Shown here piece by piece: positions 27,331 to 32,700 of a stretch of 64,000 bases of DNA. Origin of the DNA: Podospora anserina (lineage: Eukaryota); assembly GCA_017654855.1 (NCBI GenBank), contig CM030334.1, positions 3,100,001 through 3,164,000 of the forward strand, in the 5' to 3' direction. Numbering within the stretch: position 1 is the first letter of the stretch; each line of letters opens with the position of its first letter. The notes below the pieces were generated by a model. It had not been told where the DNA came from, did not search any database, and was given only the letters and a program-made list of their open reading frames with translations. The position numbers were made by a program, and so were the translations under genes.

Positions 27331-27890
27331 GACGATGAAGATCTGGTGTTGAGCTGAGTCGAATTTCGTAGTGTGAAGAAACTGAAGAAAAGGTCAAAGC
27401 GGTTGTAAGAAAGCGAGAGATCCGATGGCTTCAGAAATTCATAGCTTGTGTGCACGGACCATATGACGGACTGCCGTCTTTTTGAGATGGCTTAAGCTTA
27501 AGAGCAGCAATATTCCCAATGAAGACACCAAATAGATTCAATACAACCAATTGATACAGAGCACCATCTCTGCCTAATTCAAGTACCTATCCAAGACGTC
27601 CGCAAACACTGTAGTATATACTACGATTGTAATTATACATTCCGCTCCCCATTCCTTCCCTTCCAACCCATGTTCTACCAACACACCAAAAAAAACAACC
27701 TCATTCAAAGTGGTGTCACTGTACTCCCGCACCTCTTCCAGAACAAATTCCCTATGTGGAGAAGCAAAGAACCGAAAGCCATACCCAGCAGCCCATCTCG
27801 ATGACCAGCGTTCCCGCGCCATCTATATGCATTCAAAAAAAGAACCACACATTCCTCCTCTATTCAAAGTGCACCCTTCCCTTTCCATGT

Positions 27891-29704
27891 CTAATCACCC
27901 CGTTGGTCGATAGGAGCGTACTGTCCGCTAGGACTCGAGCCACCACGGCCCATAAGCCTTGACAACCAACCGCCCAAACCTCCTCTACTTTGTTGCCTGG
28001 AGGACTGGGCCTTGGGATCACCGACCGACGTTGGTGGATCGATGTTCAGTCCTGGAATCGCACTTCCCGGTCCAAATCTCGCCGGCGAGGCGCGGCCTCT
28101 GATGTCAAGGGGCGGAATGGGCGACCCGGAGCGCACGAGCGGATCGGACTCGGCGTGCAAGGCTGGCGTCGAACCAGCAGGTGTGCCCAGCGCGCGAGTG
28201 GCGTCGCCAAAGAGGGCGTCCATGTCCTCGAGGCGGACACCGCGGGTTTCTGGGTAGATAAAGTATACTAGGGATATTGTTAGACTTTGACTTTCAAAAA
28301 AATTAGCAAGGCAGCGGTCAACTTACCAACAACGAAGCTGACGGCACACCAGAATGCGTGGACAAGGTACAACCTCCAGTGAATCCAGTCTTGGAGAATG
28401 GGTGTCATCTGACCCACCAACCAGTTGCAAGCCCAGTTCGTGGCTGTTGACAGACTGGCACCCTTGGAGCGAATCTTGAGAGGGAGAATCTCCGGGGGGT
28501 AGAGCCAGGGGATAGGTCCCCATGAGTATCCGAACGCAGCGTTGTAGATCATGACCATGATGACAACCATTGTTGGCGTCGATGGCACGTCGATGTACAA
28601 AAAGTACGAAATGGCTGACAGCGAGAGGACCATCATAACAGCACCGGACAGCAGGATAGGCCTCCGGCCCCACCGGTCCACCATGTACCATGGCGGGATT
28701 GTCGACAGTAGGTATGTGATACCATTGAACCCGGCCATTAGAATAGCGTCGTGACCAACCCAACCAGCTGACTCGAACACCATCGGCGCGTAGTATGAGA
28801 TAACGTTGATACCGTTGAGCTGGGCCAGGGCCTGTGCTGACATGGCGATAAAGACTCGCCTGCCATACCGCTTGAACATCTCGGAATATGTGCGCTCGCC
28901 TTCCTGCCGTTGGAGGAGAACGTCCATCTTAATGTCGCGGAATTCCTCGCGAGCGCGGGGATCGTGAATGTCACCGCCACCGTACAGGTTGGCAATGACC
29001 ACGATACCTTCCTCGTCATGGTCGTGGTCCAGGAGCCATCTAAAATGGGTTAGCGCGCGGTTCACATGCGTGGTGTAAGTGGTAGCGACAAACCTGGGCG
29101 ATTCGACGATAATCAGACTACCCAAACCAAGAAGACCTCCCATAATGCATTGCATCATCAGGGGCAGCCTCCATGAGGTGTTGCTCTCAATGAAGCCACA
29201 GAAATAATCCACCCACACCGAGGTCGTGTAACCAACAATATTGCCGGTAAACTCAATGCAGGCGAGCTTTCCACGGTTGTGTGGAGGTGAGATTTCAGAC
29301 TGATATACCGGGACGATAGTTGAGAGCATGCCAACTCCCAAACCAGCCACAAACCTACCAACCATCATCATGACCATGTTCGTCGCGGCTGTTTGCAGCC
29401 CACCTCCAACGAAGAAGATCATTGATCCGTACAGAATCGTTTTTCTTCTCCCGATAATATCTCCAATATGCCCAACACAGAGGGACGATATTAATGCACC
29501 AATTTCCAAGATAGCAACCATTGTTGCTATTTCTGCATTGGAAGGTTGGTGGAAATACTCCTTGAAAAAGGGACCGGTGATGATCCCCGACATCACACCT
29601 TGATCATATCCGAAGAGAAACACGCCCAAAGAAACGAAAATAGAAGTAAAATAAATCAACGGCTTGCCCGTCAGGCCGTGGATGGAACTCGAGCTGCCCG
29701 TCAT
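27891..29704 (-). CDS. MFS sugar porter family transporter; exons 29704-29094, 29039-28327, 28267-27891 (566 aa from first AUG; frame open upstream to 30187)
   Basis: LFGYDQGVMSG, DIIGRRK, PVYQSEISPPHNRG, ESPR|WL, QLNGINVISYY, DRWGRRP, WGPIPWLYPPEI, YPETRGVRLEDMD; true start uncertain (see findings). Confidence 0.9.
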
Positions 29705-32700
29705 GATGGTGGCTAGTAGCTGTTCTGCCTTGCTAACGTGACGGTGCGCAGCAGTTGGGATGTGGATTGCCTCTTTGCTAACAGCGCCAGTGTAGCGAGA
29801 GGATGACCGGCTTCTGCTAGAAGACGGCTCTCGGTATCGGACTTTCTTTTTGTGTCTGGGATGGCGTTTGATGACACCTGCAAGGGCTTCGTCGTCGTTT
29901 AATCGCTTGCGCAAGGGATCTTCTTCGGCGAGCTGCTCGGCGATGTCGCCCGTGTCGGTCCACGAAGAGTTCCCTGAGTCGTCCTCCGACTCTGAACTCG
30001 CGGGCTCATCAATGAAATGGCCCTGTCGGGATGATCGGGAGGTGTTATTGTGCACAGGAAGGGTTCGGAGGGGAATGTTCGAGGGGAGACGGGACGGGTT
30101 GGAAGTCGGAATCTTGTCGGTTATGGGGCTGGTTCGCAGCAGCCTCCGTCTGCAGTGGGAGAGGGTCGAGTTGGAGATGTGTGTGTTTTACAGTTGCCGG
30201 CTCCGCAGAAGGCGAAGACATTCGGTCAGATGACTCTGGGAAATGCAGAAAGCTAAACAGCCAAACAACAAAAAACTAGGCACGCTGCAGTGTCGGTCCC
30301 AATGGGAGATGCGGCGGTGGTGTAAGTTGGCACCCTTTGACGCACGGGGTTAACCCCGGCTGCCCTGTGGGCGGATTCAGCGGAGCCGCCAAGCCACCAT
30401 CCCGCAAACCAGGGGGTCCTAAAAACGTCCACTCATCCCCGCTGCCTTGTTCAACCATCTCCGCAACCAACTTTTGGTCCTCTTCTTACAGCACGCCAAG
30501 TCACCCCCTCCAATGTCAATCCTGCAAATCGCTGCTGATACCGGCAGCCGGCACAGAAGAGCCCTGGGCCAATCTTCATCTTATCACGTTTGACCCGTCT
30601 GCCGACTTTAGGGGTTCAAAAACCCGCGGCCATCCTGTCATCCTGTTAATGTTGTTCCACACACAAACTCCATGGACTCTCACAAGACGACTTTGAGCTC
30701 ATCACGCGGCAACCTATTTTCGAAATCGACCGCCTCTGCTTAATCAGGCAACCCACCACCCTGTTCAAGTCCGACGGAAACTCGAATAGATGCTGTCCTG
30801 GAGGGATCAAATGTTTGAAACGTGAAACATGCTGTTTCCCTCACGCCGTCCCACGTTGTCTGTCGTTCCATGACTGTGGGTGAGGCGCGATTCCAGCTCA
30901 CGAGCTGACATGCCTGTGAGGTTACGCAAGGCTCGCCTCAAAAAGCTCAGCACCGGCTGCAGTACGATCAACCAGGCTGAGGAATTGAACCAACGAGCGC
31001 CGATGTTTTGACATTCACACCCATCTGGGTTTCTTCGGCGTCATCCAGCTTGAAACAGACCACGCCGCAGCCAGCTTATGTTGGTGATGCAACAACAACC
31101 CATAGAGCCATTCGGTAGACACTGACTGACACAGCCATACTTGAATTCGCTTGCCGGGTGGCCGAATGCCTTATATATATCAAACAGCTTCACTGCCATG
31201 CAAAATATGCAACGTCAGGACAAAATTCTGCGAGGCTTCCACGCCCCTCCCTTGCATCCGTTGTGCCCCTGGGGCTCATCATGCAGAAGCTCCCTCCCCG
31301 CGGCCGCTATGATGTTTCTCGGGAGACAGGAGACATGGACCATCCCAGAAGGGAAGTCGAGCATGAATCGCCAGGCCGGGGACTGAATGATGCTGAGCTC
31401 AGGAATGGGGCAATTCAATAAAGGCCCCCTGCATGGCCGTTTTTGAGATCTAGTGATATTGCTAACCTTCATTACAGTATACGGACGTCGGCGTTCGTCC
31501 TACGATACACATGAAACGCTGTGTTCGCTCAAATTTCCAGATGCAACCATGCAAGCCAGATCGTGGGGGGAAAGAGAGTACTATAATGGATGGTACTCGG
31601 GCCGGATAATATTCACGGAGTGTTGTCGAGTTGCCCAACTTGTCCTCTCGACCGCGGTGTCATGATTCCAGAACAGTTTGTATTCGATGAGCCGCCGACA
31701 ACAGTTGCTTGCTGTATCATATTGGAAATCAGGTATTGCCCCTACTTCTGATACGATAAAGCACAAGGCGTTGGCCAAGACCACCTATGTTGTCTTGCAA
31801 GTATTAATTTCTAGAGTTTAGAATTGTCTCTTGTCTAGAGTTATAATCGTAGTAGGAGCAATATCCAGCGCTCGGACCATTCATTTCATCTTCTCCCGCT
31901 CTTACAGCAAGCCAATCTTGCCTTGCATGGGACGAAACAGTGGGAATGCAAGTCACATCTCGAGCCGACCGAAAAACCTTGGTCTGAGGCGTTCGTCCAG
32001 TAGTGGCTTCGACAGGGGTGGGTGAGGTGTTTTGGAGAAAACACCAGTGACTGGTGCCCAGACTTTGGATCTCGGAGCAATGAGAGACGGCTCCCTTGCG
32101 TCCAGCTCATCGTGCATAATGGTGGTCTCCCTTCACCCATTATCCATACATAGCTGGCAGTGCTTTTCTGCCTCTGGCCTCGACGTGTCGGACCACACTG
32201 CTACCATCTAGGAGAATACATAACCAGAATACCGACCTCGACCTGACGCCTGCGCCGCCACAGCTTCCGTCATCCTAGTGGAGAGGCCAAGTCACCGATA
32301 CCGACACAGCCAACGGCTGAGCCGAATATAGCATCGGTTGAAGGATGCTCCGTACACAGAAAACAAAAGAACAGAGCAGTAAGAGAAGTCAGGTTGCGTC
32401 GTATCTATAATCTCGGCTTCCATCAACACTCGAGCTCTCTTGATCAGCCGGTTGGCCCCGAATCTGACGGTGATTTCACAAGAGGCTGGGGTTTGGTTCC
32501 TGGAACAGGCAAGTGGACAAGGGCACCCGGCCAATCGCGTGAGCGCAACCGAGGTGTGGGTCACCCTTGCGTGCCACCGAAACGGGGCGCGCTATCCTGT
32601 GTTCTGTGTCCCTGCCGTGGACGTTGGGTGAGGTGAGTGGCTCGACAGTGGCTGCCCCAGGGCATTGAGTTTTATAATTATTGCGGCGATCCGACTGCTG

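Follow-up and report, generated by a model that had tools for sequence, protein, structure and literature searches.

How is translation begun on a gene whose conserved N-terminal part contains no AUG? This question is raised by a sugar transporter gene of Podospora anserina, located on a 64,000-nucleotide (nt) stretch of contig CM030334.1 (assembly GCA_017654855.1, positions 3,100,001 to 3,164,000 of the forward strand). This stretch is the window analysed here; its own numbering is used throughout, and all gene coordinates are those of the minus strand. The gene is PODANS_3_8810, the window translation and the P. anserina S mat+ record being identical over 350/350 residues. The answer that we favour, with a probability of roughly 60%, is that a long isoform is started at an AUU codon and a short one at a downstream AUG reached by leaky scanning, the balance between the two being modulated by a short upstream open reading frame (uORF).

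The transporter frame is a stop-to-stop open reading frame (ORF, 28280-30187) that follows an in-frame TAA (30190-30188), and its first in-frame ATG lies at 29704-29702, which leaves 161 sense codons (30187-29705) with no methionine. The initial annotation of this DNA, which had described this AUG-less frame from the sequence of the window, proved accurate in its coordinates: the peptide strings that it quoted are all found in the translation, the ATG at 30221 opens a 58-codon ORF ended by a TAA at 30047-30045, this uORF has the transporter frame at +1 of its own (30221-30190 = 31), the intron-like stretch running from GTAAAA to TGCAG (30191-30150) measures 42 nt, a multiple of three, and the two start candidates that it put forward, a CTG CTG pair and an ATA, lie at 30142-30137 and 30124-30122, respectively. 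From the triplet frequencies of the window, the chance of meeting no stop over 161 codons is P = 0.007, that of meeting no in-frame ATG is P = 0.08, and the methionine-less lead of the transporter ORF is the second-longest among the 51 stop-to-stop ORFs of at least 200 amino acids (aa) in the window. Taken from the window alone, this lead is suggestive and not extreme, and the case is carried by the comparative data.

Conservation of the extension, on which the initial annotation had made its proposal depend, is found across the Sordariomycetes. A search with the 165 N-terminal residues matched 61 Sordariomycete proteins (~600-1040 aa), all of which have the tail before a Sugar_tr core, and the four homologue species that were looked up span three subclasses of this class. 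The tail contains several conserved blocks (RLPSNIPLRTLP, SSWTDTGDIAEQL..EDPLR, KKVRY, SKEAIxIP and AEQLLATI / AERLLAxIM), and in RLPSNIPLRT the minor-allele fraction at codon positions 1/2/3 is 0.004/0.0/0.33, with similar values in three other blocks. Judged by this pattern, the extension is real coding sequence, conserved as protein across Sordariomycetes. The annotated N-termini of the 61 homologues are mutually dissimilar upstream of the conserved part, as is to be expected where every gene predictor is forced to make up a start. In a metagenome scan with an alignment of the tail, which gave 30 loci, 25 of the 26 loci with an upstream in-frame stop have no in-frame ATG before RLPSNIPLR. 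Near-duplicates were dropped (L006, L007, L014, L023 and L027, respectively of L005, L004, L009, L021 and L018), L030 is a doubtful homologue, and L028 was treated separately (it has no in-frame ATG and carries TTCAAA-ATT-CC). After this filtering, 19/20 distinct loci lack an in-frame AUG, and only L003 has one, at -333. To lack an AUG is therefore the norm of the family and not an accident of Podospora.

Methionine is absent from the extension to a degree that other parts of these proteins do not approach: between RLPSNIPL and the methionine of I-M-x-G, the extensions of 49 homologues contain 0 methionines in 7,339 residues, versus 2.35% in the C-terminal tails and 3.8% elsewhere. At the DNA level, the tails of 17 sequences (16 loci and the window) hold 12 ATGs in any frame, versus 54 expected from base composition. 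The extension of the window holds a single one (30009-30007), which has a weak context and does not belong to the transporter frame. As a side observation, the out-of-frame ATGs inside the tail are all (19/19) in the +1 frame, with the pattern xAT-Gxx (e.g. GAT-GAG) and none in the other frame, a bias that is probably due to acidic codon pairs. The methionine of I-M-x-G is the first in-frame ATG in 23/23 sequences; its contexts resemble GCCGCCATC-ATG, and position -3 is a purine in 21/23. In the window it corresponds to the AUG at 29704-29702 (context GCCACCATC-ATG-A), from which a short isoform of 566 aa would be made. Such an AUG desert followed by a strong internal AUG is, as far as sequence patterns can indicate, the signature of leaky scanning, and since a ribosome that has missed a weak start needs a clear path to the following AUG, selection seems to act on both isoforms.

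Which codon, then, would start the long isoform? Start codons were counted over 24 sequences, i.e. 23 loci and the window, and the comparison singles out a codon that had not been listed in the initial annotation: the isoleucine codon of K-I-P (30112-30110 in the window) is ATT in 24/24, with A at -3 in 24/24 and the context CAAG/CAAA-ATT-CC. Other conserved isoleucine columns are mostly ATC, and that of SN-I-PL, for example, is ATT in just 5/24. In L016, L019 and L026, no near-cognate codon other than the ATT of K-I-P follows the last in-frame stop before RLPSNIPLR is reached. Upstream of it, spacing varies by 1-4 nt and in-frame stops are found at -12 (L016), -21 (L026), -36 (L025) and -45 (L004); downstream of it, alignment indels come in threes (+3, +9) and variation at codon position 3 is seen in four blocks farther in. 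By these signs coding-type conservation begins at CAAG-ATT-CC (window 30112), and it is this ATT that stands as a conserved near-cognate in good context at the 5' edge of coding conservation. As a proposed start, CAAG-AUU-CC would place 136 codons before AUG 29704, with the rest of the tail at 30109-29705, and yield a long isoform of 702 aa. The candidates put forward earlier are less general. The CUG CUG pair, with A at -3 of its first codon, holds as a possible extra start in Sordariales, with an in-frame CTG at -27 in 14/24 sequences (among these, -30 is CTG in 12 and TTG in 2), but not as a common one, being mostly found in Sordariales-like loci and its bases falling in another frame elsewhere. 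The AUA position is in frame as a near-cognate (ATA, ATT or ATC) in only 10/24, always with C at -3, and is ATA itself in 6/24. The broader proposal, that long and short isoforms arise by non-AUG initiation, remains the best reading of the conservation of the extension and of its missing AUG.

The proposed start is preceded by a conserved element, GCAGACGGAGGCTGCTGCGAACCAGCCCCAT (30153-30123), that could be aligned in 23 sequences and whose consensus reads GC(G/A)GA(C/A)G(G/A)GG(C)GCTGCTGC-N3-4-A(A)CAGC(C/G)CC(AT), followed by a short spacer and by CAAG/CAAA-ATT-CC. The distance from GCTGCTGC to ATT is 31, 32, 33, 34 or 35 nt and does not proceed by steps of 3n, the register of the element with respect to the coding frame takes each of the three possible values, and it reads as LL, CC or AAA depending on the lineage. 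Given this variable spacing, the differing reading and the in-frame stops that follow it, the element is non-coding. Its arms (30146-30140 and 30131-30125) can pair as a hairpin of 5-7 bp, with 90% of cells paired and one pair changed from G-C to C-G in 4 sequences, and 12-15 nt separate the end of the hairpin from the A of ATT. The core pattern has one match in the 64-kb window, and a search of Rfam gave for the element a chance-level match only (UCA1, E = 0.72). Transcription-factor sites (GCN4/CPC1-like or CreA-like, judged against consensus sequences) were also considered for the element and the block of the upstream AUG (uAUG), and were rejected, as by-eye matches were imperfect and unconserved.

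As to its role, the position of the element suggests that it could keep the scanning 40S subunit at the AUU, serve as the binding site of a factor or promote a frameshift. That it is a dedicated cis-acting signal for unconventional decoding, either as a start-holding hairpin or protein site or as a stimulator of a +1 frameshift in Sordariales, is an idea that we put forward tentatively and consider rather doubtful. In the start-holding version, the hairpin or protein-binding site would re-form at the exit channel of the 40S subunit, 12-15 nt behind the P site, and hold scanning ribosomes on the AUU, so that a weak codon would become an efficient and regulatable start, mirroring the effect of downstream hairpins. 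In the version proposed for Sordariales, the element would stimulate a +1 shift fusing a conserved N-terminus of the uORF to the transporter tail. Kozak is said to have reported that a hairpin located downstream of a weak start aids initiation, and structure-assisted non-AUG initiation reportedly goes by the name of 'START'. The present case resembles these in having a conserved element able to form a stem-loop near a near-cognate start. It differs from them in that the element lies upstream of the AUU, with its end at about -13 to -16, and not ~14 nt downstream of the start, a placement for which we found no known mechanism.

The uORF is a second feature of the leader that recurs among relatives. 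Its AUG (30221-30219) has no other ATG beside it from 30400 down to the extension, and its context, with C at -3 and T at +4, is weak. The 58 codons that it opens (30221-30045) are in the -1 frame of the transporter, overlap the proposed start and end 65 nt past it. An upstream ATG in the related context (C/T)GACC(G/C/A)ATG(A/C) is found in 9 other loci, 115-196 nt before ATT and not aligned across loci; with the looser (C/G)C(G/C/A)ATG-like context, it is found in 13 loci and the window, 103-196 nt before ATT. An overlapping AUG-started ORF in the -1 frame is present in 12/21 sequences (20 loci and the window), or 13 with L029. Such ORFs mostly end 59-173 nt after ATT, as far as +368 in L025, and before ATT in L009 and L013. 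A conserved uAUG whose ORF precedes or overlaps the main start, as is typical of uORF-controlled mRNAs, is present in 13 loci and the window. Considered for itself, the uORF peptide begins with MSP(S/L)(L/F)A(D/N)P(A/V)(N/E)(L/F)G in L002, L004, L005 and L011, with some third-position changes, and with MSSPSAEPAT in the window, and the gene model of C. samala begins with MSSPFADPAT.

RNA contigs establish that these features can stand together on one transcript. Logan contigs from 4 runs of 4 studies, of unspecified growth stage, were placed on 27400-31600; they are consensus sequences from which rare variants are dropped, such that low-level editing or minor splicing would be hidden. In 4/4 runs, contigs skip 28268-28326 and 29040-29093 with GT..AG ends, and hence derive from spliced RNA. 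In each run, a single contig is unbroken from 29094 to 30269, 30275, 30334 or beyond 31600, so that the AUG of the uORF, the in-frame TAA and the whole extension are on one mRNA. There is no splice joint in the 5' region of the contigs of any of the four runs, and no base difference from the window between 29601 and the upper end of each contig, 30122 being A. This speaks against both a dominant 5' exon that brings an AUG and an error in the sequence, two explanations that the initial annotation had recognised as threats to its proposal. A transcription start site (TSS) downstream of about 29900, a third threat, is at odds with contigs that all reach at least 30269. Three of them end at 30269, 30275 and 30334, where coverage farther upstream is thin or patchy, and these ends mark neither a TSS nor silence. 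Introns starting at the GTAAAA of 30191 were also tried: the acceptors at 30150, 30144 and 30129 give 42, 48 and 63 nt, all 3n, and the AG at 30114-30113 would give an intron of 79 nt (3n+1) able to join the frames, but no such joint is seen in the contigs and the sites are unconserved.

These elements can be combined as follows. Scanning ribosomes would first meet the weak-context uAUG at 30221, which opens 58 codons that extend, in a different frame, over the start that follows. Those passing it would cross the ~30-nt element (30153-30123) and about 12 nt later reach the AUU at 30112, in the AUG-like context CAAG-AUU-CC, where a minority would initiate and produce the long isoform of ~702 aa. 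In Sordariales, some starts may take place at the in-frame CUGs 30142 and 30139, giving ~712 aa. The long isoform would bear a disordered, motif-bearing cytosolic N-terminal tail. The remaining ribosomes would scan ~400 nt of almost AUG-free sequence and produce the 566-aa transporter from AUG 29704, whose context is strong. Translation of the uORF would carry ribosomes past the AUU, and these could restart, if at all, only downstream; the uORF would in this way shift the balance between isoforms.

Several points weigh against this AUU-based scheme. AUU is usually a weak start codon, and that it is the codon actually used is inferred from its conservation; likewise, we infer in what ratio the isoforms are made, what the uORF and the element do and which function the tail has. 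Some lineages do have an in-frame AUG: L003 (at -333), and gene models of Epichloe and Metarhizium that start with MIGNLV, one of which (P0031) is a continuous ORF on a Logan contig. Metagenome loci may hold assembly errors, and the dropping of rare variants from RNA contigs means that a minor spliced or edited form may exist. Covariation in the hairpin is slight (one compensatory pair), the sequence being too invariant to decide, and the fold of the window sequence (-10.4 kcal/mol, z = -0.01) is no better than that of shuffled sequence. Lastly, the first 10-12 codons of the uORF look conserved as a peptide among a few Sordariales loci, which suggests that it may be a conserved-peptide uORF, and the distance from uAUG to ATT is 3n+1 in 10/13 loci (11/14 with the window) despite its range of 103-196 nt. 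This spacing, recorded in loci that are not phylogenetically independent, counts against simple uORF control because a frameshift would predict it and such control would not.

Could the long isoform then be started at the uAUG and reach the transporter frame by a programmed +1 shift? Antizyme, yeast EST3 and ABP140 are programmed +1 frameshift genes, YPL034W reportedly being another, and the present gene, in the window, shares with them a short AUG-started ORF overlapped by a long +1-frame ORF devoid of its own AUG. Ribosomes would start at 30221 and slip within the element, for example at CAG-CCC-C (30130-30124), and the long isoform would begin with MSSPSAEPAT. Besides the +1 relation of the frames in the window and the 3n+1 spacing, this is consistent with the 12/21 sequences (13 with L029) whose AUG-started ORF would need a +1 shift, with the likeness of the uORF N-terminus (MSPxLADPxN) in L002, L004, L005 and L011, with JGI models of C. 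samala and T. verruculosa in which MSSPFADPAT is fused to the tail frame, and with the presence of CCC-C in the uORF frame at loci with the 31-nt spacing. However, no AUG-started ORF leads into the coding frame in 6/21 sequences (L008, L015, L016, L017, L019 and L020, where L020 offers no more than 234 nt upstream), the one ORF of L021 is of the -1/+2 type, and the context-matched uORF stops before ATT in L009, L012, L013 and L021, although a second ATG of L012 (at -94) reaches ATT. Unlike in the known +1 frameshift genes, there is no conserved shift site here and several relatives are without an upstream ORF to feed it: no heptamer is common to the loci, CCC-C is out of the uORF frame in L026 and L018, four loci have CAGCGCC, and the element-to-ATT spacing is not fixed modulo 3. 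Moreover, a shift would leave the invariant ATT with its AUG-like context unexplained. With 6/21 sequences offering no ORF route and no common shift site, a +1 frameshift, as proposed in the initial annotation, cannot be the general mechanism, and we regard it as unlikely. It may occur as a lineage-specific addition in Sordariales, where the uORF has CAG-CCC-C in its own frame and an N-terminus that seems to be conserved.

A normal AUG could also be supplied, in some conditions, by a minor transcript with another start or exon spliced in. For P. anserina, P. comata and P. pseudopauciseta, public models (P0070, P0068, P0002) do use an upstream exon with an ATG at 30458 (peptide MVEQ...), joined through a 196-nt "5' intron" (30345-30150) with plausible ends (GTGCGT...CTGCAG), the contig of one run (X1) extends upstream beyond 31600, and rare variants are hidden in contigs. 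Yet this joint is seen in none of the 4 RNA runs, all four contigs crossing the proposed acceptor at 30150 unspliced, and the acceptor CAG is unconserved, being GCGG in most relatives. Nor can a common acceptor exist, given the in-frame stops of L016 and L026 12-21 nt before ATT and the bases before ATT that are not always AG; the annotated N-termini, moreover, differ between species. We consider such a transcript quite improbable as the source of the long isoform. Still less probable in our view is that the tail is an untranslated relic in Podospora, where only the 566-aa protein would be made. The annotated start is indeed AUG 29704 in three Podospora species, and 3/3 amino-acid differences from P. 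comata within the first 350 residues fall in the tail. However, relatives in which coding selection acts on the tail also lack the AUG as a rule, and its absence therefore does not mean disuse; in the window itself, the 161 codons are open (a chance event at the P = 0.007 given above), and ATT, its context and the upstream element are intact. A-to-I editing exists in fungal perithecia, and editing of the AUA at 30124-30122 into an AUI start during sexual development, which the initial annotation had also envisaged, has in its favour that the AUA of the window belongs to the transporter frame and that a U precedes (-1) the A to be edited. It is nonetheless very hard to reconcile with the data: position 30122 is unchanged in the consensus contigs of the 4 RNA runs, fewer than half of the 24 sequences have a codon of the right type in frame there, as counted above, and the position lies outside the hairpin loop.

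Returning to the AUU start, how does it compare with known cases? In Pezizomycotina, including Neurospora crassa, Ivanov et al. (2017, PMC5487733) describe for cpc-1 an extension started from conserved near-cognates, AUU among them, with a uORF in the -1 frame. The likeness extends to the conserved AUG-less in-frame extension and the good context of its near-cognates, and a +1 frameshift was likewise weighed there, for uORF2 of cpc-1, and left open. The differences are that cpc-1 encodes a transcription factor (the GCN4 homologue), and the gene described here a membrane transporter, and that here one codon (AUU) is invariant in 24/24, the extension is wholly methionine-free and a ~30-nt element lies 12-15 nt upstream. 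In Cryptococcus, ArgRS and LeuRS have AUU-started N-terminal extensions, according to Wallace et al. (2020, PMC7049704). There too, AUU in a strong context gives a longer isoform and a downstream AUG a shorter one via leaky scanning of a single mRNA. Those extensions are short mitochondrial targeting peptides with ribosome-profiling support, whereas the one proposed here is a 136-codon cytosolic tail, predicted to be disordered. Taken together, the proposed mechanism is of a known type, and the locus would be an unusually clean new case of a conserved non-AUG start.

The protein itself is a sugar porter from about residue 165 onwards, with a score of 302.6 bits for Pfam Sugar_tr (PF00083; cut-off 22.3) and of 89.7 bits for MFS_1. 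The closest solved structures are those of the plant STP6 (E = 1e-42) and STP10, the bacterial GlcP and XylE, and GLUT3. The core is shared with other PF00083 sugar porters; the N-terminal tail (~140-160 aa) and the C-terminal tail (~100 aa) lie outside any Pfam family. The structure of the T. verruculosa orthologue was modelled from an alignment of 45 sequences; in the result, a helical bundle spans residues 182 to ~613 and both tails have a predicted local distance difference test (pLDDT) score below 50, the only structure predicted in the N-terminal tail being short helices at DIAEQL, PLRQRLN and AERLLATIM. According to this model, the N-terminal tail is a disordered, motif-bearing cytosolic arm. 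The initial annotation had conjectured that a tail of this kind could act in sensing or sorting. The names 'high-affinity glucose transporter' and 'STL1' are database names of homologues, given by annotation only.

Public models disagree for this transporter family, some being 'partial', some shortened to 566 aa and some provided with differing upstream exons. The GenBank record of PODANS_3_8810 is flagged "partial" and begins with RRLLRTSP, the annotators having evidently found no start codon. In several Podospora records (P0002, P0063, P0065 and P0066), the transporter is named 'Ribulose bisphosphate carboxylase large chain', which must be an annotation error as Pfam gives Sugar_tr/MFS. Intron 1 (29093-29040, 54 nt) is in frame and stop-free; an older GenBank model (P0069, 726 aa) translates it as 18 extra residues, and it is removed in 4/4 RNA runs, as is intron 2 (28326-28268, 59 nt). 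Exons 2 and 3 (29039-27891), which encode Pfam Sugar_tr sequence, end with the stop codon 27893-27891. A literature search for Pa_3_8810 by name found nothing, one on near-cognate starts and fungal sugar transporters returned nothing on this gene, and the gene is not mentioned in the passages found of the Podospora re-annotation paper (PMC9801653).

Further observations concern the surroundings of the gene. RNA contigs differ from the window only at 27562, 27687 and 29600. At 29600, the plus strand has C in 4/4 runs, i.e. an A>G in the sense of the mRNA that changes CAA to the synonymous CAG at codon 35 of the short isoform. In the 3' untranslated region, 27562 reads T in three runs and an extra A follows 27687 in all four. 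As neither of these is an A>G change, a difference of strain or assembly is likelier than editing. Upstream of the gene, separate shorter RNA contigs are found in three runs (30305-31600), the single contig of X1 running from the gene past 31600; this stretch contains no long ORF, and the RNA could be a non-coding transcript or read-through. Just downstream of the transporter, an ORF on the minus strand (27393-26878) contains LYRSALQAV...YVIRDQLRLAFRD and resembles what we take to be a small LYR-motif (Complex1_LYR-type) protein.

What would this locus mean for the Sordariomycetes? If true, the AUU-started isoform would be a very clean natural case of non-AUG initiation, with an invariant start across three subclasses, more than 7,000 methionine-free residues and a conserved uORF and leader element, and a single annotation rule, i.e. 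a start at the AUU of CAAG-AUU-CC and a second product from the internal AUG, could fix gene models class-wide. Either of the roles considered for the element, if true, would make it a new class-wide recoding signal that sets the ratio of tailed to untailed sugar transporter. How start-codon stringency is controlled, and what the presence or absence of the tail means for the transporter in sorting, turnover or sensing, would be directly testable in Podospora or Neurospora.

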